Source: Schmidtea polychroa | Taxonomy: Eukaryota | DNA length: 64,000 nt | Assembly (NCBI GenBank): GCA_044892525.1 | Contig: CM097885.1 | Span: forward strand, 33,172,001 to 33,236,000 | Reading direction: 5' to 3' | In this document: positions 18,446 through 51,098 of the stretch, piece by piece | Layout of the letters: each line of letters starts with the position of its first letter | Position numbering within the stretch: position 1 is the stretch's first letter | Translations under genes and position numbers: made by a program | Notes under the pieces: model-generated | The model's input: the letters and a program-made list of their open reading frames with translations, nothing else | What the model was told of the DNA's origin: nothing | The model's database searches: none

Positions 18446-18576
<131 letters not shown>

Positions 18577-24946: not shown

Positions 24947-24970
24947 GAATTAGAATTTTAACACTATAAA

Positions 24971-26216: not shown

Positions 26217-26224
26217 TTTAATAA

Positions 26225-27234: not shown

Positions 27235-27274
27235 TTATTAATAATTTAAAATGGACGGAGTCCCCTGAGAGGAA

Positions 27275-28039
27275 CTAAACCTGTTTCAAATGTAAATACA
27301 TTGAAATCTCTTCTCCATTAAAATCAATCAATTCTCCTTCTTGATTAAGAATTTTAAAATTAATATCCATTATATATTTTCTACATAAAGGTAAATAATT
27401 TGGAGGATTCATTCTTTCAACTATTTTATATCCCATAGGAACTGTGTTTGAGGGAAAGGAATATAAAACATTTGTTTGTTTACCATTATTATAAGAACCT
27501 GTTATACAATCGCAATGAATATTTATTGTGTTTGTATTTATTATTTTTATAATATGTTCTGATGTTATTATTTTATCTTCTTTTATTGTTATATCCATAG
27601 GTTTAAATCCTAAAACTGTGTGAAAGAAACAATTATCTAAAAAACTAATTTTTATATTCTTCAAAGTCATTACACATTTTGAAGTTGGTATATCCATTTT
27701 AATTTTAATACCTTCATTTGTTTTTTTAGAAAGTATATCATTTAAATCTTTTATCTCATATGCCCCAGGTTCTATTGTTATAATTTCTGGTTTATGCCCA
27801 TCACGAGTTTGAATAGTAAATTTATTATTATCTTTAGTTATATTAAAAATAGTATTATAAGCACAAAACCATAATAGCCCCAATTCATAATTTAAATTTT
27901 GATCTAATTTAATTGAATCTTGAAAGTTTATAGTAAACTCTGATTCTTTTGAATTTATAGATAAAGTTCTTGAATATTTATCTGACATTATGTTTACCAT
28001 TTTTTTTAAATTATCTTCCGGAGGGTTGTGAAGCTCCAT
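27275..28039 (-). CDS. Minor capsid protein (penton, single jelly roll)
   Basis: INIHCDCITGSYNNG...VLYSF...YLPL...ILNQEGELIDFNGE...LHLK pattern of Polinton mCP; 254 aa. Confidence 0.85.
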   Translation of the reverse strand: MELHNPPEDNLKKMVNIMSDKYSRTLSINSKESEFTINFQDSIKLDQNLNYELGLLWFCAYNTIFNITKDNNKFTIQTRDGHKPEIITIEPGAYEIKDLNDILSKKTNEGIKIKMDIPTSKCVMTLKNIKISFLDNCFFHTVLGFKPMDITIKEDKIITSEHIIKIINTNTINIHCDCITGSYNNGKQTNVLYSFPSNTVPMGYKIVERMNPPNYLPLCRKYIMDINFKILNQEGELIDFNGEEISMYLHLKQV

Positions 28040-28087
28040 TTCTTTAGTAGTAAATTCATATAGTAAAAATCCTTATAGTAAAAATCC

Positions 28088-28552
28088 TTATAGTAGAGAT
28101 TCTAGATCATTATAAATTTCTTGAATTATAGATTTAAAATCCTGCGTATGCCCCTTTCCCTCTCCCTTATTCAATCTATACAAAACATATAAACTTAAAA
28201 TACCACATATTTTAGTATTCAAAGGTTGAACTTGTAAAGAGTTAAAAGTATAACCATTTGGGGAATCAATCGGAGAACCCCTCAAGAGATAATCTTCAAC
28301 TTCTTTAGTAGGTTTAATCCCAAAAGAATCAAAGTAGATAGATTTCTTATATATACAAACCCAATGAGATCCTTTTTTATTTGAATTTTGATAATTGATT
28401 ATTATATTCAGGGGACTCTCCAGACTTGATAATTCATCATTCATTAATATTTTAATTTTTAAATTTAAATAATTTGCATAATCTTTTAAATCAAAATTTG
28501 TTTTTGCATTTATTCCAAATGTTTTTAAAAAATCTAATATTGAAGGAGTCAT
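28088..28552 (-). CDS. Adenain-like cysteine (maturation) protease
   Basis: GSHWVC, YFDSFG, Q...ICG catalytic H/D/Q/C. Confidence 0.9.
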   Translation of the reverse strand: MTPSILDFLKTFGINAKTNFDLKDYANYLNLKIKILMNDELSSLESPLNIIINYQNSNKKGSHWVCIYKKSIYFDSFGIKPTKEVEDYLLRGSPIDSPNGYTFNSLQVQPLNTKICGILSLYVLYRLNKGEGKGHTQDFKSIIQEIYNDLESLL

Positions 28553-28574
28553 TTTGTATTTTAAAACTTCGTAT

Positions 28575-29489
28575 TTATAACTTCGTATACTTATTAAATT
28601 TATCTTTTGAAATTATTCCTTGTTTTAACAAATCTTTAGAAATCTTTAAAATATCAGAATCTAAATTATTATGTCCTGCTTTCCTTGCAGCTAATAGTTT
28701 TCTTAATTCAATAAAAAGATTGATGGGATTTGGTTTACCACCTTCACTAATTAATCCCTCTCCCTCTGTAACAACATAACCCTTTTCATTTTTATTTAAA
28801 TAATTCTTTAAATCTTGAATATATTTTGCTTTAGAACTAGCTCTTATTAATCTTATTAAATTTAAATATTTTTTAATTTCTTCAACATCATCTGAAGAAT
28901 ATCCACAAAGTAATCTATAAAAATCATCTGTAAATTCAAAGTCTAAATATTCATTATTATAAACATTTTGTGAATGAATACGTGATTTATTTTCTGAATT
29001 TGAATATAAAGTAAAGTTTTGTTTATTAATTGTTATTATTTGATATCCTTCAGTATTAGTATTAAATGTGGGTCTAATTGAAGGAGGTAAATCATCTCTA
29101 ATTTTAGGATCAACTTTAAGAGGTTTTGTTTTTAAAAACATTTCTTCTTCTTCCACATTAGAAATTCTTCTGCGTTTTCTTTGATTTCTTTCAGGATGGT
29201 TTTCACTGGATTCTTTTTCTTTATCCTGCCACTCTAGTTCTTTTATTTTTTGTTTTTTATCTTCTAACTCTTTAAATTTTGCTTGCTCATTGAAATCTTC
29301 CAACTCTTTTATAGCTTTAATTGTTGGCCCCTGTTGTTGTGTTATTACCTCATTTAATATTATAGATTCAGCATGTTGAGTTGTATCTTTTTTATTATAT
29401 TTATCTTGTTCTGATTGTAATTTTTTTAAAAGTGCTAATCTTTCTTCATATACCATTTTAATGGTATCAAAAATGGTATCATAGTTCAA
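28575..29489 (-). CDS. Conserved-type Polinton hypothetical protein
   Basis: 304-aa ORF with coiled coil, NLS-like RKRRR, GEGL motif and C-terminal LLAARKAGHNN..DI...L motif recalled from Polinton ORFs. Confidence 0.6.
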   Translation of the reverse strand: MNYDTIFDTIKMVYEERLALLKKLQSEQDKYNKKDTTQHAESIILNEVITQQQGPTIKAIKELEDFNEQAKFKELEDKKQKIKELEWQDKEKESSENHPERNQRKRRRISNVEEEEMFLKTKPLKVDPKIRDDLPPSIRPTFNTNTEGYQIITINKQNFTLYSNSENKSRIHSQNVYNNEYLDFEFTDDFYRLLCGYSSDDVEEIKKYLNLIRLIRASSKAKYIQDLKNYLNKNEKGYVVTEGEGLISEGGKPNPINLFIELRKLLAARKAGHNNLDSDILKISKDLLKQGIISKDKFNKYTKL

Positions 29490-29564
29490 AGGGCTTCAAG
29501 TATAATCCTTTACCATTTTTAGTTTTACAAAGGCATCCATTCTTTAAAGATTTACATATTTTTT

Positions 29565-29957
29565 TTAAATCTTCTTTATCTTTTGCCGACTCCCCTCATA
29601 TGGATTAAGATAGAGACCCTTTCCAACGGACACTCCCCCTTTAGCTTGCCCTACCTTCTTCATTGAATCGATTTCAGTTTGTAGTTTTTCTTTTTCTAGG
29701 TCTGTCTTTTGAGATTCTTTAGCTTTTTGAACTGTAGTTGCAATTCCTCCAGCTATTCCAGCAGCACCTGATAAACCAGCAATGATTGCAGGTATTAAAG
29801 CAGCTAATGGAAGAATGCCACCTTCTTTAGCTTCGTGGAGCTTCGCTCTAACTTGTTCTTTTATATGTTTTCCAATAAAATATTTTTTACCATCAATTAC
29901 TACTGATTTATTTTTATTTGAATTTATTAATTCTTGTAAAGATTCTTCAGTTGTCAT
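29565..29957 (-). CDS. Putative virion core protein, adenovirus pX-like
   Basis: EGGILPLAALIPAIIAGLSGAAGIAGGIA resembles adenovirus pX GGFLPALIPIIAAAIG; GKGLYL motif; ATG at 29957. Confidence 0.6.
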   Translation of the reverse strand: MTTEESLQELINSNKNKSVVIDGKKYFIGKHIKEQVRAKLHEAKEGGILPLAALIPAIIAGLSGAAGIAGGIATTVQKAKESQKTDLEKEKLQTEIDSMKKVGQAKGGVSVGKGLYLNPYEGSRQKIKKI

Positions 29958-29973
29958 TTTATAATAAATAAAA

Positions 29974-30755
29974 ATGGATACTTGGAAACCAATTTTAAAT
30001 AGACATAAGAGTAAATTCAATAATAAAGTATTTCCTGATAATTTTAGATTATTAATTGTTGGTTCTTCTGGATGTGGAAAGAATGTACTTGTTTTGAGAA
30101 TGTTACTTGAAGATGATTTTTTAGATTATAATAATTTAATCTTTTATTCTACAACCATAAATCAACCAGAATTACAACTTTTGAAATGTGGATTTGAAAA
30201 TAAATTAACTAAAAAAGCAATAATTGATATTTTTAAAAATCAACATAGGTGTCCTGAAGAAGTTTTTCAACTTTGTGATATGGTTGATTGGTATAAGGAA
30301 AAGATTTTAGAATCAGATATTAGTAATAAAAATGATTATATTTGTGAAGAAGGGCAGGAGGCAATTCAAGTTTTATTCTCTAATAAACCTGAAGATGTTT
30401 TACATTGTGATTTACTTCCTAAAGATAAAAAGAATCTAGTTATATTTGATGATGTTGTTAATATGAAAAATCAAGAGATTCAAAAGAGTTACTTTACACG
30501 AGGTCGACATAATAATTGTAATGTTATTTATATATCTCAAACATATTATGCTTTAGATAAAAATTCAATAAGAAATAATTCCAATTGTTTTATATTTTTT
30601 AAATTAGATCGCCGTGATAAGAATATGATTTATTTTCAAATGTTGAACCTGATAAGAATATGTTTGATATGTTTGTTGATAATCATTGGAAAGAAAAATA
30701 TAATTATATTTATTTGGATAGAGAAGAAGCTGAAATATGGAAAAGTTTGTTTTAG
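29974..30755 (+). CDS. A32/FtsK-HerA-like DNA packaging ATPase; frameshift near 30635
   Basis: Walker A GSSGCGKN, Walker B LVIFDD, RGRH..CNVIYISQ; shifted frame gives ...HWKEKYNYIYLD... ending at TAG 30755, which removes the overlap with the integrase. Confidence 0.88.
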
Positions 30756-30766
30756 GGCTTGTCGAC

Positions 30767-32152
30767 TTAAAAATCTGTTTTCTGTAGTTCATTATTATAA
30801 AATCTACCTAATATTTTTTCATTATTTAAATCAAAGATGCTATATGTTATTGGAGTTGTATAATTTATTTTATTTATAATAAAAATTTCATTTGTCCATT
30901 TTGCTGTGAATCCTTTTTCAAATTTATTTTTATATTTAAATATTCTTACTCGGTCACCAATTTTAAACTTTGGTTTTTCAATAACATCATTTTCAATATT
31001 TACCACTTTAATGGTTTCAGGCTTCATGGAAGCATTTAAAGGTGTTAATTTTATAGAACTATGTACATCATTATTATATTCATTTACAATCTTTTGTAAC
31101 AATTCATTGTTCCATTTTTGTTTTCCAATAGCAGTAAAATATTTCCACATTTTATTTTTTAATGTTCTATTTAATCTTTCAACTACGACTGCTTTTCCTT
31201 CGTTTTCTGTTGAATATAATTTAATATCATTTTCATTTAAAAACTTTGTAAAAACTTTGTTATAAAATTCTGTTCCTTTATCACACCATAAATATTTTGG
31301 GATTCTTTGATTTTCTTCAAATATATTTTCAAATGCTTCTGTAATAGAATATCCTGTTTTATTTTCTAAACACCTTGCAAAAGCAAATCTTGTATATAAA
31401 TCTATTACAGTTAAAATTATTTTATATTTTTCAGGGTCTGATGATTTGGGCATAAAGACTAAATCTGCAGACCATGTTTGATCTTTTTCATGTACTTGAA
31501 CTTTTAAATATTTTTTATTTTTTCTAAATTCATGGTGTAATTCCTTTGCATATTTTATTTCTGATTCTGTTGGGGTTTGTAAACTAGTCTTGGCTGTACT
31601 CTCGAGGGATCTTTCAATCTCTGCTTGTTCGATAATCTTTTTATAAGCAACATCTTTTGCTATTCTAGGAAGTCTTGCACCCATGGTGATCGGACTGTGT
31701 CCTAAGCCTATGAAAATCTTACCTTTCATTGCTAATTTAACTAGAGCTCTTTGAATCTTTTCTTGGGTTGATGGATTTTGGATACTATTTAAATCATGTA
31801 TTAAATTCACATCTGCAACATGTCTATCTCTAAGATTTGTTGAATTGTATGCAATGTCATGTTTTAAAGCTGCTTGATCAATTCTATTTATTTGTTCTTC
31901 TCCTTGTTTGGGATTATTATTTTCATCTAATCTAATATCTAATCTTGTTCCTGGTCCGGTGTAGTTGTGTTTAAATAAATGTCTTTCACCTGGATATTTT
32001 TCTGTAGTAAAAGGTTTTAATATTGAAGATGTTGTTTTTGAAGATTGTAGATCGCCTCCTGTATGTTTTTTAGTTTTTAAATGACTTGCTTTATGATGTC
32101 TTGTAACTTGACAATTACAAGTTTCACATCTCCAATATTTATTTAGAGACAT
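30767..32152 (-). CDS. int: Retroviral-like DDE integrase fused to an N-terminal Zn finger and a parvovirus-type PLA2 domain
   Basis: WSADL, WCDKGTEF, VERLNRTLK (D,D,E); C-terminal KFKIGDRVRI..KG...W; N-terminal NYTGPG...IDQAALKHDIAY...AD. Confidence 0.92.
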   Translation of the reverse strand: MSLNKYWRCETCNCQVTRHHKASHLKTKKHTGGDLQSSKTTSSILKPFTTEKYPGERHLFKHNYTGPGTRLDIRLDENNNPKQGEEQINRIDQAALKHDIAYNSTNLRDRHVADVNLIHDLNSIQNPSTQEKIQRALVKLAMKGKIFIGLGHSPITMGARLPRIAKDVAYKKIIEQAEIERSLESTAKTSLQTPTESEIKYAKELHHEFRKNKKYLKVQVHEKDQTWSADLVFMPKSSDPEKYKIILTVIDLYTRFAFARCLENKTGYSITEAFENIFEENQRIPKYLWCDKGTEFYNKVFTKFLNENDIKLYSTENEGKAVVVERLNRTLKNKMWKYFTAIGKQKWNNELLQKIVNEYNNDVHSSIKLTPLNASMKPETIKVVNIENDVIEKPKFKIGDRVRIFKYKNKFEKGFTAKWTNEIFIINKINYTTPITYSIFDLNNEKILGRFYNNELQKTDF

Positions 32153-32181
32153 TTTAAAATGTTAAAATATCAGGGATTATA

Positions 32182-33472
32182 TTAAGAATCTCCCCTAACA
32201 TTTTCGATTATTGAAATCTTTCCACCATATAATTTCATTTCTATTTTCTTTTCTTCTAATATTAATGTATATACTTTAGCTTTAAAATTAGAATCCTTTG
32301 TTACATGAAGTGTAACATCAACATTATTTATGGCTAGGCGATCATCTTGGTCTGAAACATTTATACAAAATATAAAATATAAATTTTTGAAATCTTCTAA
32401 ACTTAATTGCGGTTCAACTTTGAAATCATAACATGTTTCAATATAATTTAGATATGGGAATATGTTTTCATTATTTTCAATATTAAATTCCATTCTATTT
32501 ATTGGATAATAAGAACTATTTAATTGAATTTGTATTGTTTTTAAATTATCATCTCCAATCTTTTGAATAAATAGATTGTTATTTTTTTGGAAAGATGAAT
32601 CTACTTCTTTGAATCCAATCAAGATATATCTTGGTCGGTATGCTAAATTTGCTACCTTTATAGAATATGTTGAACCCTCTGTCATACTAAATTCACTACA
32701 GATTCTATTTAAATAATTTGTTGGAATACTTGTTGGAATTTAATCTTTCAAGGAGTTTAATCTCAGAATGTGGGTTTAATGTCCATTCAGGTATATGTAA
32801 TTCAAGTGTTGATAATTTTAATTTAGCTTTTGTATCTACAGCTCCATAGAACAATCTTTTATCACCTTCTACTCTATTACAGATGAATTCTATAAAAACA
32901 TTATGAAGTATACGATTATAGTTTTGAAGGAATCCAAACAAGTGTTTTAATTCAAAATAACCTTCAAATTTTTTAGATTTATAAAGTTCAGCTCTTTTAT
33001 GGTAACCATGGTTTACATCTAAACCATCTTTATCTAAATCCCCTTTATTAACATCAGGTATCCAACCTGTTAATTCACCATATTCGTTTTTATAATCACA
33101 ACCAGTCAAAATAAAATTTAACATTGTAGAATATACTCCCGGATGCAAAACAGTTTCAATTTCTGATGATCCTAGTTTTAATCTCATGTTGGAGAATAAA
33201 TTTGGAAAGAAATTATTTTCTAGGGTTATATCTTTGTTTGCTTCAATTTCTAATTCTACTTTGTAATATAATTTGGCATTACAAATATCTATTGGGTTTG
33301 ATGTTTGAAGAGATTGAAAAACTATATCACCCCTACGATTTAAGTTTGCAATAGATCCTGAAGTTGGAGAGATTTTTAAAATATCATTTTTTTTAATTTC
33401 ATGAGTAAATTCTTTATTATAATCAAGATTTAATTTATTTTTTTCTTGAATTTTAAGATTTATATTATTCAT
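32182..33472 (-). CDS. Major capsid protein (double jelly roll), split by a frameshift near 32730
   Basis: ORFs of 255 and 167 aa join via shifted frame IPTNYLNRICSEFS to ~430 aa; LENNF..NLF, L..LFGF..Y.RI, PRYILIGF motifs. Confidence 0.8.
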
Positions 33473-33528
33473 TTTTATATATTAAAATTTACACACACAA
33501 AATAGGATTAATTAAATATATTATGTAA

Positions 33529-33610
33529 GCCATTATAGCGGAGTGGGAATAGGCTTCAATTTTATCACCGGGAGTACCGGGTTCAATTTTCGATTTTGGT
33601 CAATTTTTTT
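33529..33610 (+). ncRNA. tRNA-like Pol III cassette 1
   Basis: A-box TAGCGGAGTGG, degenerate B-box GGTTCAATT, partial acceptor stem, T7 terminator. Confidence 0.4.
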
Positions 33611-33762
33611 CGATATTTTGTTTTCAACGGAATCTGATTCAGCGTACTGATTTTAGTATATATTTAAATTTTCAGATCGATCTGAGTGGTAGTTGTCGAG
33701 AAAATGAATAATTAATTATTAATTTCATCAATAAATAGTCACACATTAACAACTTATTTTAT

Positions 33763-33845
33763 ATTGAGTATAGCTTAGTGGTAATAGCACTCGACTGCAT
33801 TGCCAATACCAATGGGTTCAAATCCCATTTCGGTCATTTGTTTTC
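33763..33845 (+). ncRNA. tRNA-like Pol III cassette 2 (5' half resembles tRNA-Cys)
   Basis: A-box TAGCTTAGTGG, D-stem, GACTGCA, perfect T-arm ATGGG-TTCAAAT-CCCAT, T-runs downstream; anticodon stem does not pair. Confidence 0.55.
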
Positions 33846-34001
33846 AAATTTTTTTTAACGAAATATTGATCAGCATACTCGATTTAGTACTTGTACAAAT
33901 TTTTAAGGAGATTGGTCAACGGCAACTCTTGGAAATTTAAGATCAAAAACGTTTTAACTACCAAAAATTAATATATCCAATAAAAAAAAATATTTATAAA
34001 A

Positions 34002-34298
34002 ATGGATGAGTTAAAAGAAAGAATGAGAAATGAATTGAATGAAGTTAAACATAAGAGAATGAAAAGAAGAGAAGAAGAACCATTAGAATACATCAAAGAG
34101 TTGATGGTAGATAATGAAAAGTATCGACATTTTTATATGAAGGCTGTAGATGTTGCTGATATAAGATTGAAGAAAATGAAACAATTACAGGAAAGAGTTA
34201 AAGAACTTGAATCGATTATTTATAGTCTAAAAAATGACAAAAATTCAAACCTTGATGGCGCAGTGGGAATAGACTGGCACAGTGGTTCAAATGGATAG
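34002..34298 (+). CDS. Small coiled-coil hypothetical protein, 98 aa
   Basis: ATG in an AAAATG context like other genes of the element; charged helical sequence. Confidence 0.5.
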   Translation: MDELKERMRNELNEVKHKRMKRREEEPLEYIKELMVDNEKYRHFYMKAVDVADIRLKKMKQLQERVKELESIIYSLKNDKNSNLDGAVGIDWHSGSNG

Positions 34299-34331
34299 TG
34301 GTTCAAATCACATCTGAGGTTAGTTTTTTTT
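34248..34331 (+). ncRNA. tRNA-like Pol III cassette 3
   Basis: A-box TGGCGCAGTGG, B-box GGTTCAAATC, acceptor-like stem AACCTT/GAGGTT, T8 terminator. Confidence 0.5.
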
Positions 34332-34494
34332 CAACATAAAATAATATTAAAAATTTGAAAATAATATTGAAAATAGTGTGGGTATCTTATATTTATAAAG
34401 TACTTGTATATTTTATTTTATTTATTTTATTTTATTTTATTTTTTTATTAATTAATTATTTTTTAAACATAAATATGAAAAAAAAATATTGAAA

Positions 34495-34578
34495 CGGGTG
34501 ATGGTGGCGAACCGGTAATTATCGCCACCTGTCTTTCGAACACCCCCGGATCGATTCCGGTAATGTGCACATTTATTT
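34495..34578 (+). ncRNA. Structured Pol III-like cassette 4
   Basis: Hairpin GGTGGCGA...TCGCCACC containing A-box-like TGGCGAACCGG; T-arm-like CCGGA-TCGAT-TCCGG with B-box GATCGATTC. Confidence 0.35.
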
Positions 34579-34856
34579 CTCAGTTGTTTTCGGACCTCTT
34601 TCGGATTCGCTTTCGAATTCATTTGTACTTTCGAGCAGCACACTTAAAACGCCGATGAAATCGTATTCGAGCGAGAAGCGAATAATAAGGTGTGCTGCTA
34701 TTATCGAATTGATTCTGATGTATGAGTCTGGCCAGCTTGTATATTGGAAGAGATTCGATAAACGAAAGAGGTTGATTAAAAAAAAAATGTCCTCTCAGAG
34801 CAGTTTTACTATTTCATAAAATTTTTTATTTTTAAAACTTTCAAAACCTTAAGGTA

Positions 34857-35167
34857 ATCAGGCGACCTAGATCATTATGAATTAGGTAATCTGATATTCT
34901 TATAACATTAAATCCTTAAGACCAAGTAGTAGGGAATCTATGCACCCCGTTACCTTTTCTCGGAATTACTAATCTATAAATACATCTATTCCGAACTTTT
35001 TTACTTTTAAGGGAAGAAATTAAGGGTTAATGGCAATAGGGGACAAAGTTTAAAAGTTAAAAAAAGTGAAGAATATGGGGTAAAAAAGCATATAAATGTG
35101 GAAAATATGGGTCAATAGCGCTGTTTTTTTTGAGGGTGGGGGTGCTGGGGTGCATAGATTCCTCACT
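34857..35167 (-). repeat. Right TIR of the inner Polinton
   Basis: Reverse complement of 20149-20476. Confidence 0.9.
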
Positions 35168-37043
35168 CGGAAGATTTTGGCTAAGAGCCCAACCATATAA
35201 ATTATTTATATCTATATACAAAGGTTCTGTATCTTCAGAACTTGCTACATAATGTTTGTTAACAAATGTTAACCCGCCCCGTATTCCACCTTCGTAGAAA
35301 TTATACATTTCCATATCCTGTAGAACTTCTATAGGTTCCTGTAATGTCATGAGTGCTGACGCCCATGACATACCTGGAATTCCATAGAAGTTTAGAGGTT
35401 CAAGGCCGTTATAAGCAATTGCTTTGGCACGGAATTGCTGAAAATAATCTGCCAAGAGGAATACGTCCAATTTAAGGTACGTTAACATATAGTCTAACAT
35501 TGTTTCGCAATTTTGCTGAACCTAGATTTCTTGGGCGATAGCATATTCTTCATTAGATACAGAACTCCAAATCGGAGGTAATTCATGAGTAGATTCAAGA
35601 ATTTCGAGTGATGTTGCAAAGTTGTAAGGAAATATGCCCTTTGCTCTCACAATACTACCATCAAAAACAGAAGAAGTTAAAGGTAAATCTGAAAGAGTTT
35701 TAACTGCCTTTGCTAACGATGAGTTAACAAATTGCATACTGTCGATAAAACGAACAGTCAATTTGTTAATATTTACAATCAAGGATATAAATTTTTCAGT
35801 GGTGGTTGGAATGATATTTAATTTCCAAGATGGAAAATCATTCAAACCATACTTTAAAATGTGATGTAAGTCATACCCCTTCAAATTATGAAAGACAATG
35901 GGTAACTGTTTGTTTATTCTCCTAGAAATATTGCAATTTCGACAGGCAGCACCAAGATACTTACCTGTGAAATGATCATGGTCCTTAACCTTATCTTTTA
36001 TAAAATGTTTACAGAGATAACAAGTCCTACAGTTGTTGAACTCCCGTTCCTCATTGAAAGACAGAGTATTAATGAATTTTCTACCATGAATTTCATAATA
36101 CGGGAGGACAATTGTGACAGCAATTTCCTCCACCTTCTTTAAAAATTCAAAAACACATTCCAAGCCTATAAAATTAAAATATGATGTTGTGTTAGTGTAA
36201 TTGTTAATTAATAATAGACCTGCTGTTATCGGCTTGTGTATTTGGTGATGATTTATATCCCCAGGTAAAATAGCCTCAAAGTCTGCGTATATTACGAACG
36301 GTGGAGTAATCATCTTTGAATAATCTTTAAACGTTAAATTTTTATTTTTAGGGAGCGTGTAAAGGGTGGTTCCTATTTGATTTTTAGCGCACAATGCAAC
36401 ATGTACCTTAAAGGTTTTGACCCGATAAAAACCATTTAAACAATGAGGGCACCATCTAACTCTAATTCTAGTATTACATTCGACGGTTGAATGACCATTC
36501 ATTAATCGGTTTAAATTAAAAATTGCGGTGTAATGATAATTATCACCGTCTTGTAAGAGTAAAAGATTAATAGGATTCCCTTCGGTAACCTTAGATCTAT
36601 GAATTATATTTAGGTGTGGATGATGAGGTACATAATCTATATCATTATTTATTTTATTCCCTGTTATTGTAGGTTTATATTCAAAAACATTGATTGCCAA
36701 TTTTAAATCTATGTTATTTCTTTCAAATTTCGGGATGTTGCATAACCTCATTGGGCAATCAGTAATGGGATCATAATTTAGTTCGTCTAAGTAATTAGTA
36801 TAATTGGAAACACGCTCCCTATGATTTAAAATTATATCACGCTTTAATAGTGATAAAACACTATATATAAAACAAGCATGATCATTGTTTCTTACGTTTA
36901 CAATTGCTTTCTTTTTATATATTGCCGCTGGTGTAGGTATAAAACTATGCCCAGCTAATCGACTTATAGGGTAAAATGTGGTCAAAATAAAATCAAGTTC
37001 CTTAATCTTTACAACCCTCCATCCGCTACCTAAATAAGTAAAT
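35168..37043 (-). pseudogene. Left-arm pPolB copy, N-terminal/exonuclease part (5'-truncated at FTYLGSGW)
   Basis: Near-identical to 40694-42569, including the TAG at 35522-35524. Confidence 0.9.
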
Positions 37044-37057
37044 GAATTTGTTGAAAT

Positions 37058-37357
37058 GAATTTGTTGGAGTTTTTCCTCTTGATAAAATTCCATATTTGA
37101 GCAATAATCAAGCCATAATCGTCAATACTCAATCGTCTCATCTTGGTGGAGAACACTGGATAGCTATATATATGAAACCTGGTAATATATTCGTGTTCGA
37201 TCCTATGGGTTTCTATTATCCTGCTTTGTTGATATCAAAACTGCAAACAATGGGGAAACCTATTGTGTATAATAAAACTATGTTTCAAAATCCCTTGACT
37301 CAAACATGTGGTCATCACTGTTTGGCGTGGTTGTTGTACAAAAGGTTTCATGTTTAA
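37058..37357 (+). pseudogene. 5'-truncated adenain-like protease of the outer element
   Basis: EFVGVFPLDKIP...IIVNT...GEHWIA...FVFDPMG...FQ...TCGHHC; start lost at the arm junction. Confidence 0.85.
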
Positions 37358-37758: not shown

Positions 37759-38455
37759 ATGGAAGGAGAAGGAAATAATATTTTAAGATGTATGATGGCT
37801 GGCGATAATGGTATATTATTTATTTTTATTTTATTTATTTTTATATATTTATTTTGTAGATGATTTATGGTACCAGGTGACCGAGAACGAAAATGGCTTT
37901 AATTTAAATTGCACATATGGTAATTTTATTTTTATTTATTAATATTATTATTATTATTATTTAGACGTTATAATGGTGAGCGATGAGGAAGATGAATTAA
38001 TAATTATTAGTGATGATGAAGAGGAATCTCCAATTATTATTAATGATCACAACTTATCAGGTAAATTATTATTATTATTATTAGTTAATTTAAAAAAAAA
38101 ACTGTTTTAGGAAAAAGTCAAAGAGAAAATTCCCCCAATCTTGTTGAAGAAACTGAAAATATATTAGGTGCCATGATTGAATATACACGTAAATTTTTAT
38201 TATTATTATATGTAATTTTTAAAAATTGATTTAGAAAGTTCAATTATTTTGGAAGATATATATGATCCTATTATGGATGAGCTATATGCCCCTATTAATG
38301 TTGATGCCCCGGAAATTGCTGATGCTCCAGAAACTATATTATTTAATGCTCCTATTCAGGATGCCCCCATGCGGGATGATTTCGATGCCCCCACTTTAAC
38401 TGGGGATGACCTCTCTGAGGATGATACAGATTCAGATTCTGAATCTAAATGTTAG
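37759..38455 (+). CDS. Five-exon acidic protein (168 aa) with tandem SUMO-interacting-like motifs
   Basis: Exons 37759-37810, 37860-37919, 37965-38060, 38111-38188, 38235-38455; four GT-AG introns of 49/45/50/46 nt, all phase 1; the spliced 507 nt is an uninterrupted ORF. Confidence 0.8.
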
Positions 38456-39576: not shown

Positions 39577-39619
39577 AAGCTTTAGATTGTAATTTATTTA
39601 TTTTTTAAAAATTTATTAG

Positions 39620-39870
39620 GTAAACTATATCAACGATATTTTCAATCCTCAATTGGACATAGCTCTGCATGCCATAAAGTACTGAAGCTTTACTATGGTC
39701 ATAGATTCTATGGCACCAACTTTTTTATTTGCCTCAAATGCGAAACTGCTCAAGATTTAAAATACATAGATTTTTATAAGGGGCACTACACCCATTTAAA
39801 TCAATTTGTATTGAATAAAAAGACCCTTTTTAATATAATTTATGCGAAAACTAATGAGATTAATAATACA

Positions 39871-39947
<77 letters not shown>

Positions 39948-42900
39948 TAATAACAATAATAACAGAAATAATAGAAATAATAATACAAATAACAGAAATA
40001 ATAATACAAATAACCGAAATAATACAAATAACCGAAATAATACAAACAATAATAATCCAAATAATATAAATAATAATACAAATAACCGAAATAATACAAA
40101 CAATAATAATCCAAATAATGGAAATAGTACAAATAATAATATTACAAATAATGAAATATTAATAATATAAATAATAGAAATATAGATAATACAAATAATA
40201 ATACAAATAATAATAATAATAATACAAATAATAATACAAATAATCGAAATAATAAAAAATCTAAAAGACCTGCTGTAAATACTGTTCCGTGTATCCCTAC
40301 TAAAATTATAAAATTATCAATCATCGTGATAAATGATGATGAATCTGAATTATTAAATACCCAAATAGGGGGTTCGATAAACAATATAGAAAATATTCAA
40401 ATAGATATAAATGATGAACCTGAAATAGAGATAGATTTAAAGGGTTCCCGTAAAAATATTCGATTTGATTTAGAACATAAAAACTTAATTCAAATCTCCC
40501 TTACGGATAAAATTATAAATAAAATTAATGTGGAAATTGAAAAGATGGGATCTGTAAAAGTCCAGTTTACAGTTCTTATTCAATTTGAAAAAGATGGAGA
40601 AATTAAAGATAATTTCTTTTCAAATAGAGCGAGTGTTTTTTCCAACAATTTTCTTATCGATGGTGTGAGTCGATTAAATGAGAAAATTGAAAAATTTACT
40701 TATTTAGGTAGCGGATGGAGGGTTGTAAAGATTAAGGAACTTGATTTTATTTTGACCACATTTTACCCTATAAGTCGATTAGCTGGGCATAGTTTTATAC
40801 CTACACCAGCGGCAATATATAAAAAGAAAGCAATTGTAAACGTAAGAAACAATGATCATGCTTGTTTTATATATAGTGTTTTATCACTATTAAAGCGTGA
40901 TATAATTTTAAATCATAGGGAGCGTGTTTCCAATTATACTAATTACTTAGACGAACTAAATTATGATCCCATTACTGATTGCCCAATGAGGTTATGCAAC
41001 ATCCCGAAATTTGAAAGAAATAACATAGATTTAAAATTGGCAATCAATGTTTTTGAATATAAACCTACAATAACAGGGAATAAAATAAATAATGATATAG
41101 ATTATGTACCTCATCATCCACACCTAAATATAATTCATAGATCTAAGGTTACCGAAGGGAATCCTATTAATCTTTTACTCTTACAAGACGGTGATAATTA
41201 TCATTACACCGCAATTTTTAATTTAAACCGATTAATGAATGGTCATTCAACCGTCGAATGTAATACTAGAATTAGAGTTAGATGGTGCCCTCATTGTTTA
41301 AATGGTTTTTATCGGGTCAAAACCTTTAAGGTACATGTTGCATTGTGCGCTAAAAATCAAATAGGAACCACCCTTTACACGCTCCCTAAAAATAAAAATT
41401 TAACGTTTAAAGATTATTCAAAGATGATTACTCCACCGTTCGTAATATACGCAGACTTTGAGGCTATTTTACCTGGGGATATAAATCATCACCAAATACA
41501 CAAGCCGATAACAGCAGGTCTATTATTAATTAACAATTACACTAACACAACATCATATTTTAATTTTATAGGCTTGGAATGTGTTTTTGAATTTTTAAAG
41601 AAGGTGGAGGAAATTGCTGTCACAATTGTCCTCCCGTATTATGAAATTCATGGTAGAAAATTCATTAATACTCTGTCTTTCAATGAGGAACGGGAGTTCA
41701 ACAACTGTAGGACTTGTTATCTCTGTAAACATTTTATAAAAGATAAGGTTAAGGACCATGATCATTTCACAGGTAAGTATCTTGGTGCTGCCTGTAGAAA
41801 TTGCAATATTTCTAGGAGAATAAACAAACAGTTACCCATTGTCTTTCATAATTTGAAGGGGTATGACTTACATCACATTTTAAAGTATGGTTTGATTGAT
41901 TTTCCATCTTGGAAATTAAATATCATTCCAACCACCACTGAAAAATTTATATCCTTGATTGTAAATATTAACAAATTGACTGTTCGTTTTATCGACAGTA
42001 TGCAATTTGTTAACTCATCGTTAGCAAAGGCAGTTAAAACTCTTTCAGATTTACCTTTAACTTCTTCTGTTTTTGATGGTAGTATTGTGAGAGCAAAGGG
42101 CATATTTCCTTACAACTTTGCAACATCACTCGAAATTCTTGAATCTACTCATGAATTACCTCCGATTTGGAGTTCTGTATCTAATGAAGAATATGCTATC
42201 GCCCAAGAAATCTAGGTTCAGCAAAATTGCGAAACAATGTTAGACTATATGTTAACGTACCTTAAATTGGACGTATTCCTCTTGGCAGATTATTTTCAGC
42301 AATTCCGTGCCAAAGCAATTGCTTATAACGGCCTTGAACCTCTAAACTTCTATGGAATTCCAGGTATGTCATGGGCGTCAGCACTCATGACATTACAGGA
42401 ACCTATAGAAGTTCTACAGGATATGGAAATGTATAATTTCTACGAAGGTGGAATACGGGGCGGGTTAACATTTGTTAACAAACATTATGTAGCAAGTTCT
42501 GAAGATACAGAACCTTTGTATATAGATATAAATAATTTATATGGTTGGGCTCTTAGCCAAAATCTTCCGTATGGTGACTTTGTTTGGGTGTATGAAAATC
42601 TGAATGATGTGTTGAGTGAATGCGTGAATGCAGATATTGAAAACCTTCCATATAGTTATACTATGGAAGTAGACATCAATATCCCTAATCGTGTGCATGA
42701 ATATTTGAATGATTTTCCGCTTGCTCCGGAAAAAATGTGTCCACTTAATTCAAAGGTTGAGAAGCTTATGCTCACGCATTGGCCTAAGAAGAACCATGTT
42801 CTTCATTGGCGGTTTCTCAAGCTGTATATAGAATTAGGTGCGGAAGTTGAGCATGTACATAGAGCAATTAAATTTAAACAATCAACAATTTTCAAAACAT

Positions 42901-43856
42901 ATATAGATCGAAATACTAATTTACGTTCAAAATCAACATGTGAACTGCATTGAGATCTATATAAATTATTCAATAATAGTCTCTATGGTAAATCAGTAGA
43001 GAATTTGAAAAAACGTATGAATTTGAGGCTATGCAATTCATCAGCAAAGATGATTGTATACGCCTCCAAACCAACTTTCAAAAAATCAATTAAAATAGCG
43101 GATGATCTGATTGCGATTCATCTTAATAAAGATATTATATGTTTAGACAGGCCTAGCTACATAGGCCAATCAGTGCTAGACCTGTCTAAACTACGCATGT
43201 ATCAACTGCAATATAATGAATTGACAAAATATAGATCCGAATTCTTATGTGATATAAATATCGTTGCCGGCGATACTGATTCGTTTTTTCTTGAGGTTAA
43301 GCACTGTAAGCTAGACACTCTTTTGCCGGCAATGATAAGAGATAATCTTCTAGATACCTCTAATTATGATCCCGCACACCCCTTATACTCGAGAAACCTT
43401 GATTCTGTGATAGGAAAATTTAAAGATGAAAGCAAAGGTCTCGGGTATAAGGAATGGGTTTTCTTAAGACCTAAGTGCTATAGTTTATTAGGTGTCAAAG
43501 ATACTATGAGGGCTAAAGGGGTGAAATTAATGGGGACAGAGATTGGGCACCAGTCATATTTAGACTGCTACAATAACAACGTAGAATTTGCAGTGCCGCA
43601 AACTAGGATAGGGACGCGGAACCACCAGCTATATACCATCAAAATTAGTAAAATCGCATTGACAAATAACGATGACAAGCGATTATGGGTGGGGAGAAAT
43701 AATAGTATCGCATTTGGGCATTATTTTGGGGTTGATGCTGTAGATAGTGATCAAGTATTGGATGAAGTTGGACCGCTCTCTGTAGGTTTCAGTCCAGATT
43801 TCGATGAAAGTCATCACATATTAGAGGAAGTTGGACCGCTTAGTTTTCAAATTTAA
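39620..43856 (+). pseudogene. polB: Right-arm pPolB of the outer element (Asn-rich N-terminus, frameshift near 40155, in-frame stops at 42213 and 42951)
   Basis: GSGW, NNDHACF..HY, YADFEA, CYLC..DHDH..YLGAAC..CN, FHNLKGYD, YIDINNLYG, KLFNNSLYGK, AGDTDS, LRPK, DDKR; the three large ORFs are in one frame. Confidence 0.92.
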
Positions 43857-43958
43857 TCATTTTTAATAATTGTAATAATAACATCTTTTAATATGTGTAT
43901 TTTTATTATTATTTTGAAAACATGTGATAGTTTTCAAGTTTAAACATTTTTTAATAAA

Positions 43959-44036
<78 letters not shown>

Positions 44037-44471
44037 CTTGCGATATGTTGATTGTAACCAGCTATGTGGAGATTTCAGCCAAGATTTGGATGATAAGGAT
44101 CAAATATTGGATGATGTTCGACCGCTTTGTGGAGATTTCAACTCAGATTTCGATGATAGTATCGATATAGATGTTGATATTGATGATATATTATTAACTG
44201 ATAATGATAATGATGAATATTATTAAAAATATATCTTTTTTAAAAAAAAAAACTAGACTTCATGTGTTCATTTTTATTGGTGTATTAAAAACTTGTGATA
44301 GTTTTCAAGTTTAATCATTTTTAATAATCGTAATAATAACATCTTTTAATATTTGTATTTTTATTGTTATATTGAAAACTTGTGATAGTTTCAATTTTAT
44401 ACATTTTTAAATAATAATAATAATGATAATAATAATGATGTTAATAATAATAATAATAAAAATAAGTAATA

Positions 44472-44511
<40 letters not shown>

Positions 44512-44601
44512 CATTATGAGATGTTGAGTGTAACCAATACGGTTGTGAGCAATAACCATAAGGAGACAAAATATCTTGTCGGATAAACTCAGAGTATACC
44601 T

Positions 44602-44973
44602 TTGTTTGACGACAAACCAAAATGGTCAAAGCATCCAGGAAAAAGAATATCTCAAAGATTGGAGAATTTAGAAAACAGTTATGAACTATCATTTGCATAT
44701 ATACAAAATATAAAAATTAAATTGATCGATCATATTGAAGTTTTCAATAACTCTATTGTTGAAAATAAAAAGAATATGAAAATTATTGATAAGAAGCATG
44801 ATTATTTGTTAAAAAAGATCGAATTATTAGTAAGAGAAATTCAAACAAACAAAGGATCAATAGAATATCTGAAAATCAATTCAACGTTACCAATTTCAAA
44901 CAATATTGCTGCGAATACTAGTACATCAATATTTAGTTTACCTTTGCTAATTTTACATTATTTTATTGTTTAA
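44602..44973 (+). CDS. Coiled-coil ORF fragment with hydrophobic C-terminal tail, present in the right arm only
   Basis: 123-aa open frame without a clear ATG, followed by AATAAA; flanked by ~55-bp direct repeats. Confidence 0.35.
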   Translation: MFDDKPKWSKHPGKRISQRLENLENSYELSFAYIQNIKIKLIDHIEVFNNSIVENKKNMKIIDKKHDYLLKKIELLVREIQTNKGSIEYLKINSTLPISNNIAANTSTSIFSLPLLILHYFIV

Positions 44974-45092
44974 ATAAATGTATGTTTTGTTGATTTGTTT
45001 AATAATACCCTTGTGACTTGTTGAGTGTGAGCAGTACCCTTGTGAGCATTACCCATAGGGGGGACAAAATATTTTGTCGGATAAACTCGGAG

Positions 45093-45210
<118 letters not shown>

Positions 45211-45221
45211 TTACTAATAAT

Positions 45222-45279
<58 letters not shown>

Positions 45280-45466
45280 TTAATAATAATAATAATAGTG
45301 AGATGTTGAGTGTAACCAATATCATTGAACTCTTTGAAGGTTATTGAACCTCCATAGACCTTCGATGGTCTCAAATACTCACCATTCAAATACCTTTCGA
45401 ATGAGCTATTAAATAATAAAAACCATTGGCGGGAACTCTGAGAATTTAAATTTAAAAAAATTTAGC

Positions 45467-45623
45467 ATGACTCATCGGATGAGTCATATGACCTTGAATG
45501 AGGCATCGGATGAGTCATATGACCTTGAATGAGTCATCGGATGAGTCATCGGATGAGTCATATGACCTTGAATGAGTCATCGGATGAGTCATATGACCTT
45601 GAATGAGTCATAGGATGAGTCGT
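45467..45623. promoter_or_regulatory. Right-arm copy of the AP-1/TCAAGGTCA tandem array (9 perfect TGA(C/G)TCA)
   Basis: Reverse complement of 17595-17708 with a different copy number. Confidence 0.6.
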
Positions 45624-46291
45624 GGTCTTTGTTTCAATGACCTTGGTGAGTAATATGTCTTTGTTTAAAATTTGACCTTGAAAAAAAAATTTTTAATGGC
45701 GGGAGGTGTGGGGGTGGGGGTGGGGGGTATGTCTTTGTCCCAGGGGGCCGCTGGTTTAGTGGGCCGCTGGTTTAGTGGGCCGCTATCCCTCTACTTTCCT
45801 TCTTCATTTTTTGTTTAATATTTAAGAACGATATTGTCGTATTTCATTGTTTAATTTTAACTGAATCTCATTTTTCTTTGATTTTCAATTTCTTTTTAGT
45901 ACATTTTTGATTTTTAGAATTCTGGAACAACCCATCCTCCATTTCATATATTTCCCACCTGATATTTTATTCATTTAATAATTATTGTATTTTATTATTT
46001 AGGTATCCGCAATGAAACGAAATGTGACGACAAATTTTTCATGCTGCTTGTTGCGTTATCCAACGATATTCCTAGAAGTACCCGAAAGAGTCACCGTTAA
46101 AAAAAAGTATTGTGGCGGTACAATCGGGGTGCGTGTATGTATACAAATAATAAAATTATTATATATAAAAATAATAATGTATCACAATTAATAACTACAA
46201 TAGTTGTTACTAATAATTATTAATTAATATAGTCAAGTAATTAACCAACCTTGAGGTCCTTGGGAATTAGGTCCAACTTAGAAATTTAGAT

Positions 46292-46716: not shown

Positions 46717-48992
46717 TTAAATTTTGTTATTGATTTTTTTACTTCTATTTTCTATAGCGGTAATTCACCAAGGTAAATTATCGCTATATAGCTTTTTTAA
46801 TTAAAAAAAAATAAGTAAAAAACAAATGATTCTCCACGTGCAACGTGTGAGATTGCAATTCACATCCAAACCATTCAACCAACAAAAGACAAAAAATAAG
46901 GTATTACTATACATTACACTGCTTATAAGCATATAAAAATATTTTATATCAATATTAAAAGTTTATTTATTTTAAAAACAATATTAAAAATTAAAAAAAA
47001 ATATTTTAATTTGTGAAAATTTTATATATAAAATGATATCTTATTAAAAATTTGAAGAATAAAAATAAAAACATTTACTTCGAGTTTTATTAATTTAATA
47101 AATATTTACTGTAAGAAAATGAGGAAATTTTATTATTAGTTAATGAAAGGGAAATTTAGTACTGAAGGCTCAAATAGTTATAGTCTAATAAATACTGTAA
47201 AGATCCCCTTGTTTTAATCAATGTGTATTTTAATAAATTTAATTTTAATTTTAATTGATTTCCTATTAATGACTTGATTTTTTAATTTCATAAAAATATC
47301 GTAATACGACATTTATTTTAATTTTCCAAAAATATAAAAAATTCATTGTTACAAAATTGGCCCTCTGAAATAATGAAAAGCATATTTTATATTATTTGAC
47401 AACCGCAAAATTCGAAATATTATTGATAACTAATTAACACTTTCTTATCAGTTATTTAAAACTATATATAAACAAATTAAAATTTATTTTCATGATATTA
47501 ACAAGGATTGTTCAGAATATTTCAGAAATATTTTAACAAAAGCATGAATTTAATCCAAATCTTAAATCATATCATACAAAGTTTCTAACATCCGTAATGC
47601 AATTTATATGCACCTCATGCGCCTGAATACGATTGGTCAATAACAGTATAAATATAATTATAATATATTTTAGTAATGCAGGGTGACCAGAAATAACTTG
47701 GATAAACTTTACCAGTGATTTCCAAAAATGAGTTCAATAAAAACAAATAATATTTTTGAGAACTATAACAAAGGTCTAAAAATATAAATTGACATCAGTT
47801 TTCAAAATGCCCTACCTTCACCTTAACATATAGCTTAAGACGTTAGGTGAAATTCTTTGCAATGAGGTGAAATTCCGTTACTGTGATTTAATTTCATTCC
47901 CAAAGTAGTAAGCACTTGGGTATGCACTGCACACCCTGTCAAAATTATGAAAGATAATAATTTTCTGCAATAATAATATAATGCAATACCAATAATAATA
48001 TAATGTATACATTATACAACCAACAAAATGTTTTATATCAACACATTCAAATATTATGTTGACTTACTTGCTTGTATTCTGGCATTACGTACGGTACTAG
48101 GTTCTACACCACGTAGCTCAATAAAAAGCAAACGAACAATGAAATTATGATCATGTAATTGACGATTTTGTTAGTAATACGGATATACGTATGGATTTTT
48201 TGTACAAATATATAATAAAAAGTTATAGGCGTCTTTAATGTACATTTTTATGGTTTTTTATTATTGTTGTTGTTCTCTGCACACCCTGCGTGAAATCCCA
48301 CCGCACGCCACTGCAATAACCCCTCTGAAATCCCAAATTCATTAATCTCCTTTATTTCGGTTTTTATTATTTTTGTTCATAATTAACTTCAATTTATTTT
48401 TAACGAAATAATATTTAAACAATTAAAAATTAATTTAAAAAGTTAATAAATAAATAATAATTTAAAATTTTCATTATTTGTTAAAATTAATTTATTTATA
48501 ATTGATAAAATCTGACAAGAAATTTTATTTATGAAAAGCATGTCATGAAAATTATTTTTCGACTGGCAAAAGATAACAATAATTTAAATTTATTATGTAA
48601 ATTAATTTACGAAATAGGTTAAAAAAATGATCCAATTAAAAAGAAAATTCTATAAATTCTTAGTGTTTCATTAGGCATTCATATCTGTCAATATAAAACA
48701 GATTTATATATGTATATATATATAAAATTTCTAATCTGTAATTGTGGTTACTAATATCAAGCAAAAAACCAATCGCATTAAAACAATAATTATTACTACA
48801 AATCATATGACTGAGAAAAGTATTTTCAATCTGCTTAATGATTTGACAAACAAGAAAAAAATTGGTTTTATATTTCTCCCATTGTAATTAAATTTTTCTT
48901 CAATTTGAGAAAACAGAAATAAAAAAAAATTCATGATTATTGTTGAAAATATCAAAAAACGAAATGCACAATAATTTGTGCTAATTTCCCCA

Positions 48993-51098
48993 ATGTTGAT
49001 CGGCACTCGAATAATCAGGCCAATATTTATTTTAATTCTTGTAAAACCTTGTTTTTCTGTCAAAGGATGCACGGTCATTCTAAAAAACCAGCAATCGTCC
49101 ATGAAAAAAGCCGTTTGTAATATGCCAAATCAAATTCTCAAATCTATCCCAACAGATTTACCTGAAGCTTTAGTTGAATTGGAAATATCATTTCAGGATT
49201 TACAAACGATTTATAATAAGGAATTTATCCATTTACCGAAATTGGAATATCTCTCGATTGTCTCATCAAATGTCCAAACTATTCAAGAAGGAGCATTCAT
49301 TCAACTGTCGAACCTAAAATCTTTATCATTGTCTAATAATTCTTTAATCATTTCTACCGGAAATTCAATGAGTTTGTCAAAATATATTTTCTTTCCACTT
49401 CTCAGTTTAACAAAAGTCGATTTCTCATACAATAGCATTGGAAATATCCCTGATTTCTTTTTCAACCATGCCAATCAAACCTTGGAGAGTTTACACTTAT
49501 CACATTCTAAAACCGAGATTATATTAAGCCCGAGTAGTCTAATGTATATGACAAATTTAAAAATTATTAATTTAGAGTATTCACAAATGACTTCAATCAG
49601 CAGGGATGTTGAGGAGTCGTTTAATATCATGTCAAAACTCAAAGAAATATTACTAATAGGTAATTTGTGGAATTGTGACTGTCAATTGAGATGGTTTCTG
49701 TTGTGGATAATAAAACGAAATAATTTCCGAAACCAAATAAAAATGAATACAAAAGGTTTCAGTTGCAATAGTCCACCGGAAATAAGAAATTACGATATTT
49801 TCGGAAGGGATTTAAACAAAATATTAACCATGAAATTTCAGTGCATTCCAGAACCGATTACCTCGAATTCGACAGTTTCAATTTACACTGGTCACAACAT
49901 ATCTTTAACGTGCATTTTCAAAAATCTCGACGAAAAACACAAGATTTCCTGGGAAAATAAAGGAAATATTTTAACAACGAAAATCAGCTACAGAAGATTT
50001 ATCATCACAGAAATTAGTGGAAAATTTCGAAAATCTATTTTAACCATATTGAACATTTCCAAATTAGAAGAAGGAAGTTGGAAATGTTTTGTTGATTTTG
50101 ATAACAAACCGATTGGGATAGAATATTTTATAAATGTAGAATCAGAAAACAATTCAGAAAACTCACCGGTTTCCAACAGTCCCACCTCCAAAAATGCCAT
50201 AGTTTATGCTTCAGTCTCATCTTCATTAATTTTAATTTTTATAATCGCGCTAATCGTTGCTATTTATTATTGTAAATTCTACAAAGGGAATTTATTTTCT
50301 TTCAAATCCCGTCCTCGTTTCAATATAATTGCAAAACGTCAATCAAAAAACCATTTCTACAAAAATATCACACAAAAAACCCAAAATCCATATTCCATTT
50401 CCAAAGACTCGATAAAGCTGGAAGACAAAATCTACGATAATGTTCCAATATCATCTGGATTTTATATAAATTTCACAAAGAAAAAGAATGAACAAAACTT
50501 TTCAACTTTAAATTGTTTAGATTGTCAGAACTATGCAATTGTCGATGAGATTTTTACAGATAGTTCCAATCCTCATTTAAACAAAACAAAATCTCCCAGG
50601 TTCTGGTATTTAGATGATTCAGTTGATGGCATTGACTATATGCCGCCAGCCCCTGTTGATATCGGTAACGACTTGATGGCATCAGAAATATCAGACGGCG
50701 ATTCTGCATTTATCACAAGAATCCCAAGCAGGACACCTTGCCCTATTCATTCAAGTCACGCATCGATGAATAATTTAAAGAGATCACTATCAAATATTCA
50801 ACAAAATTCATTCAATCAAATCGATGAAATAGAACCTTGCCCGATTCATGGTAAAAAAAATTCACAGAATTCTTATTCGGTTCACTTTCGCATTCCTGAT
50901 CAACAGCTCAATTCTTCAAAAAATATTCCTAATTCAATAAAACCGAAAATTAAAACAAAATCAAATCAGTTTTGTAATTCATCGGAAAAATCGCACTCAA
51001 AAAATTATTTCCCCGTTTATTTATCCACTTTAGATATGCAAGTGAATGATGACACTCTTTATAGGCAATACTCTTGTTTAACTAATTCTGTCGTTTGA
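48993..51098 (+). CDS. Single-exon LRR + Ig type-I membrane protein (LIG/Kekkon-like host gene)
   Basis: Signal peptide, several LRRs, LRRCT GNLWNCDCQLRWF, Ig domain (LTC..W..LTI...EEGSWKC), TM helix, cytoplasmic tail ending NSVV. Confidence 0.88.
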   Translation: MLIGTRIIRPIFILILVKPCFSVKGCTVILKNQQSSMKKAVCNMPNQILKSIPTDLPEALVELEISFQDLQTIYNKEFIHLPKLEYLSIVSSNVQTIQEGAFIQLSNLKSLSLSNNSLIISTGNSMSLSKYIFFPLLSLTKVDFSYNSIGNIPDFFFNHANQTLESLHLSHSKTEIILSPSSLMYMTNLKIINLEYSQMTSISRDVEESFNIMSKLKEILLIGNLWNCDCQLRWFLLWIIKRNNFRNQIKMNTKGFSCNSPPEIRNYDIFGRDLNKILTMKFQCIPEPITSNSTVSIYTGHNISLTCIFKNLDEKHKISWENKGNILTTKISYRRFIITEISGKFRKSILTILNISKLEEGSWKCFVDFDNKPIGIEYFINVESENNSENSPVSNSPTSKNAIVYASVSSSLILIFIIALIVAIYYCKFYKGNLFSFKSRPRFNIIAKRQSKNHFYKNITQKTQNPYSISKDSIKLEDKIYDNVPISSGFYINFTKKKNEQNFSTLNCLDCQNYAIVDEIFTDSSNPHLNKTKSPRFWYLDDSVDGIDYMPPAPVDIGNDLMASEISDGDSAFITRIPSRTPCPIHSSHASMNNLKRSLSNIQQNSFNQIDEIEPCPIHGKKNSQNSYSVHFRIPDQQLNSSKNIPNSIKPKIKTKSNQFCNSSEKSHSKNYFPVYLSTLDMQVNDDTLYRQYSCLTNSVV

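Follow-up and report, generated by a model that had tools for sequence, protein, structure and literature searches.

Contig CM097885.1 of the Schmidtea polychroa assembly GCA_044892525.1 holds, in a window of 64,000 nucleotides (the whole stretch analyzed; positions 33,172,001 to 33,236,000 of the forward strand, numbered here from 1), a defective derivative of a Maverick/Polinton-type element in which most of the polymerase gene stands twice, once in each arm of a long inverted repeat, with a TAG and a TGA stop codon common to the two copies. Very likely, these stops are unselected mutations that most of the family does not carry, and the copying of the arms took place on more than one occasion. 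The positions of all features are collected in Table 1.

The right copy of the gene is that of a protein-primed family B polymerase (pPolB) of the Maverick type (PF03175, E = 8e-14), with 773 relatives at E ≤ 1e-30 among 7175 candidates, the best of them 60% identical. It is collinear with the pPolB of the metagenome contig L003, which also has ATPase, integrase and protease genes, and 39670-39795 matches the N terminus of the L003 polymerase. Both stops were confirmed in frame, at the same codons and in the same sequence context in the two arms, as the original prediction had them, and the frameshift that it placed near 19290 proved to be one extra base at 19294 (minus strand) in the left arm only. 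Besides the stops, the right copy has a third break, the frame shift listed in Table 1, which falls in the unduplicated, Asn-rich 5' part and for which an intron is a possible alternative; the left copy never had this 5' part, its arm beginning at the position that corresponds to 40694. The duplicated polymerase spans 3.15 kb, in which 12 substitutions separate the arms, 10 of them residue-changing. Since arm identity is 99.9% in the inner and 99.2% in the outer part, stops common to both arms are unsurprising in themselves; the TAG and the TGA sit in segments of different arm-to-arm divergence, the TGA being flanked by arm-specific differences at 42813 and 42992. A third pPolB, a degraded fragment at 13975-15700, lies beside a mariner remnant. 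It is a member of a different subfamily, with 67% identity to the right copy, and carries no stop at the TGA column. On the Maverick-like contig L003, a ubiquitin-conjugating enzyme gene lies at 225-722 (PF00179, E = 1.7e-12).

The outer element has terminal inverted repeats (TIRs; 17451-17875 pairs with the right end), and its ends read AGTAGA, which is five of the six letters of (AGT)2, the (AGT)2/(AG)3 motifs being defined on vertebrate elements. Its right part looks original, and its left part is an inverted copy of 40694-44539 followed by a terminal stretch of about 400 bp. A 22-bp word has one occurrence on the left and two on the right, at 44518 and 45300; the open reading frame (ORF) between the two right words has relatives of 90 to 94% identity in public assemblies (3 of 17 candidates). 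At the inner junction the last four bases of the left arm also open a short tandem duplication; a mark of this kind is typical of template switching, and it fits a host or a viral polymerase alike and does not discriminate between them. The protease (PRO) remnant cut by this junction is 52 to 55% identical to the PRO of L001, L002 and L003, and the four loci L001-L004 (out of 83 candidates among metagenome contigs searched with the remnant) are too distant to reveal the parent's junctions or left end. Integrase, ATPase and jelly-roll matches were found only in a second, nested Maverick (31 of the 45 ORFs of at least 120 amino acids scanned), and tblastx of the outer element against L001-L004 yielded pPolB and PRO only. 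Since these searches showed no open frames for these core genes (integrase, ATPase, capsid) in the outer element, it is a defective derivative and not an intact member of the Maverick/Polinton group. Among viral contigs, the N-terminal part of the polymerase gave 7 candidates, none confirmed as a relative, the terminal 21-mer gave 0 matches, and alignment A1 gave 86 candidates, again none confirmed.

About 2 kb of mostly noncoding DNA separate the PRO remnant from the polymerase. Within them, a small acidic reading frame in pieces (37760-38455), with GT..AG-like gaps and with CCAAT- and TATA-like words ahead of it, suggests a putative spliced gene in the center of the element. PRO and polymerase are on one strand with the polymerase reading towards the terminus, an order that may be native or the product of an inversion. 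The polymerase of L001 and L003 converges with the protease instead, a further gene lying between the two; variant gene layouts of this kind have been reported for frogs (PMC8097293).

Table 1. Features of the outer element, its polymerase copies and the nested insertion (window coordinates)
Feature	Position	Strand	Remarks
Outer defective Maverick/Polinton-type element	17451-45795		begins AGTAG, ends CTACT
Target-site duplication, left copy	17445-17450	+	TTCCTT, 6 bp
Target-site duplication, right copy	45796-45801	+	TTCCTT, 6 bp
Left terminal stratum	17451-17853		likely original TIR; partner 45322-45795
Right terminal stratum	45322-45795		partner of 17451-17853
22-bp word, left	17854-17875	-	left arm switches here from match to 44518-44539 to match to terminus
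Middle stratum, left arm	17854-20145	-	inverted copy of 42564-44539, with the last third of pPolB (3' side) and the tandem units 3' of it, ~0.7% different
Shared TGA, left copy	19756-19758	-	context identical to right copy
Nested younger Maverick	20146-35167		15 kb, splits left arm; target-site duplication CGGAAG at 20140-20145 and 35168-35173
Inner stratum, left arm	35168-37043	-	inverted copy of 40694-42569, 2 differences in 1876 bp
Shared TAG, left copy	35522-35524	-	context identical to right copy
Inner junction	37040-37067	+	14-bp tandem duplication; its first 4 bases are the arm's last 4
PRO remnant	37055-37357	+	adenovirus-type, 5'-truncated, cut by junction; PF00770, E = 9.2e-07; adenain matches
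Right pPolB gene	39586-43856	+	reads towards terminus; broken by frame shift near 40155-40170, TAG and TGA
Inner stratum, right arm	40694-42569	+	
Shared TAG, right copy	42213-42215	+	context AQEI*VQQ, in frame
Shared TGA, right copy	42951-42953	+	context CELH*DLY, in frame
Right-only segment between two 22-bp words	44540-45299	+	760 bp; contains ORF 44587-44973

Decay of the copy and age of its arms

To read the letters of the family, contigs of sequencing runs from other samples were compared with the window; they show the family's letters and not those of this individual, contigs drop rare variants, and depth differences between runs were not taken as copy number. At least half of the sampled words of 40260-43830 occur in nine runs; four of 24 (X1, X5, X6 and X7, one per study from four studies) were compared, and the small-share runs X10 to X24 were left unused. 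No run carrying these words was listed as RNA, although X5 may be one. The closest contigs differ from the window at about one site in 100 (e.g., 8 in 762, 6 in 663 and 5 in 506). At the TAG (42214) another letter stands in 97.2, 100, 100 and 99.5% of contig depth (X1, X5, X6 and X7, respectively), and at the TGA (42951) in 95.9, 100, 100 and 98.6%, so that the stop-bearing letters make up at most 0 to 4% of depth. All 19 of 19 aligned relatives lack a stop or gap at either stop column, and the TAG column is invariant among them. The original prediction had proposed looking for the same stops at other loci, which the closest contigs of these runs do not carry, and had held that replication and integration needed a helper; as a property of the family this is unsupported, since the closest contigs of four independent runs are without both stops and the shared mutations look unselected. 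An amplified, helper-borne foldback family, in which many copies would share inactivating changes, was likewise not seen in the four runs. At 43841 the right arm is without 173 bp that the left arm retains (18695-18867, an acidic polymerase tail with 63-bp repeats), and three of the runs have the 63-bp repeat at this place, like the left arm. In X1 and X7 the closest contigs over 40260-43830 are about 300 and 2400 to 2700 deep, against about 10 to 17 and 40 to 70 for the weakest, a contrast that is slight in X5 and X6; at most this hints that the family was amplified unevenly.

Among the variable places, 40 of 480 were listed: 19 are private to the right copy of the window (the closest contigs of all four runs differ from it), 12 vary among the runs and 9 were dropped (2 covered by one run, 3 carried by a more distant contig and 4 with the window's letter in closest contigs by residual depth). 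The 19 are a lower bound, as seven listed contig pieces match the rows exactly and others hold one to three unlisted differences. Third codon positions account for 4 of the 19 private sites versus 8 of the 12 run-varying sites (P = 0.022), and 4 of the 11 private sites common to both arms fall at third positions, as by chance. About 5% of single changes in the frame give a stop, and two among 19 are within chance (P = 0.25). The family is thus under selection and this copy is not, and both stops are likely ordinary decay, mutations of one decaying Maverick copy. No Rfam match at the gathering score, which might have marked a structured RNA signal, was found in 17400-45900.

The arms fall into three strata of age. 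Inward of the nested insertion, the inner stratum has 2 differences in 1876 bp, and the outer part of the polymerase has 10 in 1277 bp plus one indel (Fisher P = 0.005); the whole middle stratum has 13 differences in ~1.93 kb (inner versus middle, P = 0.007), and the terminal stratum has 9 substitutions in 403 bp plus 5 length differences, a count that omits one further difference at the junction itself (middle versus terminal, P = 0.007). An uneven mutation rate was rejected as the cause of this staircase within the gene: the private load of the right arm is equal in both parts (10 in 1876 bp inner versus 8 in 1271 bp outer; P = 0.81), and the 18 private sites in the arm are uniform along the gene (Kolmogorov-Smirnov [KS] P = 0.99), whereas the differences between arms are not (KS P = 0.004). 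Aligning the arms and mapping shared against arm-specific mutations, as had been proposed, separated shared from right-only sites by position, with 9 of 10 inner private sites common to both arms versus 2 of 8 outer ones, namely 42654 and 42951 (Fisher P = 0.013; best-changepoint permutation P = 0.0075). At this private load, arms with separate histories from the start should show 21 inner differences, and 2 were seen. It follows that copying or conversion reached the inner segment recently, and since the TAG lies in this re-copied segment its presence in both arms dates nothing. The TGA alone plausibly predates the duplication. Of the earlier claim that the polymerase was dead before its arm was duplicated, the part concerning the TGA stands by parsimony, this stop lying in the older segment, and the part concerning the TAG does not, its segment being recently homogenized; the alternative offered with that claim, that the arms were homogenized, holds for the TAG segment. 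The 22-bp word marks the step in divergence at the outer edge: on the left, 17854-17990 aligns to 44395-44540 at 2 substitutions in 135 and only poorly to 45200-45301, before the second right word.

The nested Maverick and its surroundings

The younger Maverick that splits the left arm carries a pPolB of 1364 amino acids without stops, a packaging ATPase, an integrase with a PLA2-like domain and a double jelly-roll capsid gene that occupies two frames, with the split near 32705-32739. The left end of this Maverick exceeds the right end by 3 bases, and an inner copy of the end motif is present in each TIR (20383 and 34925). It was rejected as close kin of the outer element, its pPolB being 26% identical. 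The window is AT-rich and contains remnants of mariner and hAT transposases; at 48975-51098 lies an open frame of 707 amino acids with leucine-rich repeats and an immunoglobulin domain, with no introns in the stretch. Such contents are those expected of an animal genome.

Origin of the shared stops

The explanation we favor, and to which we give an even chance, is that the stops are private to one copy decaying in place and reached both arms through staged copying from right to left after integration. An ordinary Maverick with terminal repeats of ~0.4 kb, presumably intact, would have integrated and left the 6-bp duplication that flanks the element. This copy would then have decayed without selection, the pattern displayed by its private sites, with the TGA arising at this stage. 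A break in the left part would next have been repaired on the right end, with entry at the 22-bp word and copying inward through the polymerase; such a repair would yield the structure observed, and it would have removed the integrase, ATPase and capsid side. The second Maverick would have inserted into the new arm, which it visibly interrupts, and the 1.9-kb inner segment would have been copied or converted once more in recent time, so that the TAG and a further eight private changes came to stand in each arm; we infer this event and its donor from the heterogeneity seen between the strata. The data do not require a helper, although one may have acted on this single copy; this order of events needs none. 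The terminal stratum is about the usual size of a Maverick TIR (vertebrate mean, 402 bp; PMC8097293), and the TIRs of the nested Maverick, near-identical over ~285 bp, indicate that young TIRs start alike.

Several points weigh against decay in place with staged copying. The terminal step consists of nine substitutions in a GC-richer end full of tandem repeats, and these nine exceed the 4.6 expected from the private load (P = 0.046), so that they make an imprecise clock. Had the element integrated as a finished foldback, a conversion tract between its arms would likewise end at the 22-bp word, where one arm has 760 bp that the other lacks. The two shared private sites outside the inner segment are the sole ones, and a tract of less than 179 bp could have moved the TGA. 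The three P values for staged copying share overlapping sites, have small counts and are not independent; the variable sites come from the 40 of 480 listed and from contigs of other samples, not from reads of this individual; and the left end of the parent was never observed.

The foldback might instead have formed during replication by a sound polymerase, with an integrase supplied by intact siblings, and the stops might have come later and been spread by conversion between arms, oftener near the center. This is unlikely but a serious contender: it fits the same staircase of divergence, the private changes look unselected from the start, and conversion tracts of several kilobases are documented between palindrome arms (mean, 2068 bp; PMC3723533). 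It needs one more event, however, a 760-bp loss on the left having to be combined with an early conversion that spanned the entire middle stratum. Among the matches listed for the four runs, which comprised 15 of 87 joints and 24 of 1025 loose ends, none was placed at 40693/40694, and the X1 and X6 contigs nearest to the window continue through this point without rearrangement. Improbable, to a further degree, is the helper model, in which a foldback arose by duplication in an already dead copy and owed its replication and integration to a helper; in its tenable form only the TGA is older than the duplication, with conversion of the inner arms at a later time. The TGA and 42654 are indeed common to both arms in the older segment, and a clean target duplication flanks an element that itself lacks integrase, ATPase and capsid genes. 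The model predicts, however, termini no older than the middle stratum, and 9 terminal differences were seen where 2.7 would be expected (P = 0.002). It also predicts sister copies bearing the stops, against the small share of depth noted above, and the residual contig of X1 at the TGA differs from the window three bases away. The strict form, with one duplication and no conversion, fails the uniformity tests and has hardly any probability left.

It is very unlikely that the near-identity of the inner arms is an artifact of assembly or polishing. Arms that are 99.9% identical and 3.65 kb apart do resemble long-read foldback chimeras, but both elements have exact 6-bp target duplications, the inner arm continues into the outer arm across the nested insertion, and polishing by reads of a many-copy family would be expected to pull towards the family's letters, while both arms keep nine nonfamily letters. 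A functional polymerase whose stops are read through or recoded is close to impossible. The reading frame continues before and after each stop, and the catalytic motifs read intact; however, near-identical copies exist without the stops, the right copy has its further frame break, and the left copy is without the 5' part. Recoding was rejected on codon usage as well, the gene having 11 TGG, one TGA and one TAG in 1233 codons, and no in-frame TGA or TAG occurring in the nested pPolB (1364 codons) or the host-type ORF (707 codons).

Comparison with known systems and significance

Degraded Mavericks whose pPolB carries stops are the rule, 96% of vertebrate loci being degraded (PMC8097293), and the core gene set is described in PMC4028283. 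Like the fossil Mavericks of PMC8097293, the outer element has a PF03175 pPolB with an Endonuclease VII-like segment, an adenain-type protease remnant, AGTAG TIRs, a 6-bp duplication, and stops and frameshifts from host mutation. It differs from them in that the integrase/ATPase/capsid side is replaced by an inverted copy and a second Maverick is nested in one arm, and its arms of ~4.5 kb, which include most of pPolB, contrast with the TIRs of 46 to 1447 bp of intact vertebrate Mavericks (PMC8097293). No Maverick with pPolB duplicated in both arms was found in the literature searched, most subscription journals being outside its scope. The nearest mechanism is that of Galileo in Drosophila mojavensis, for which TIR extension by repair copying past the opposite TIR has been proposed (PMC3573991; TIR1-F1-F1-TIR2), with the statement there that such expansion had already been reported for Polinton repeats. 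Common to both cases are internal sequence drawn into the inverted repeat, with break repair that uses the other TIR as the proposed cause, and conversion between long TIRs, a candidate process for the inner segment here. As expected of such an extension, the presumed old TIR pair has diverged further than the recruited sequence has, and the change falls at a homology (9 in 403 bp versus 13 in ~1.93 kb). Galileo is a cut-and-paste element of the P superfamily, whereas here the polymerase gene of a virus-like element was recruited and three age strata lie in one copy. Expansion of plastid inverted repeats under the Goulding model (10.1101/2021.06.21.449227) similarly has a strand invade the repeat on the other side and copying continue beyond the junction into single-copy DNA, but in an organelle genome that is under selection and continuously homogenized, unlike the dead nuclear insertion described here. 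In Y-chromosome palindromes (PMC3723533), kilobase-scale tracts hold inverted arms more than 99.9% identical; those arms are far longer, and the inner segment here was either converted or newly duplicated.

The shared stops themselves are ordinary, and the wider locus is of modest value. It carries a warning, however: a defect found in both halves of a palindrome gives no date for the duplication, since one of these stops lies in a segment that was re-copied recently. We would also raise, tentatively and as something that may well not hold, the idea that the locus is a snapshot of the birth of giant foldback Maverick satellites, in which a 0.4-kb repeat grows inward stepwise by repair on its own other end. 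If so, this growth would swallow the polymerase, delete the capsid and integrase side and leave a long palindrome with intact ends that helpers could mobilize, and the three age strata would date the steps of repeat growth. Three datable strata of arm copying in one Maverick thus offer a testable route from a normal Maverick to long foldback derivatives.

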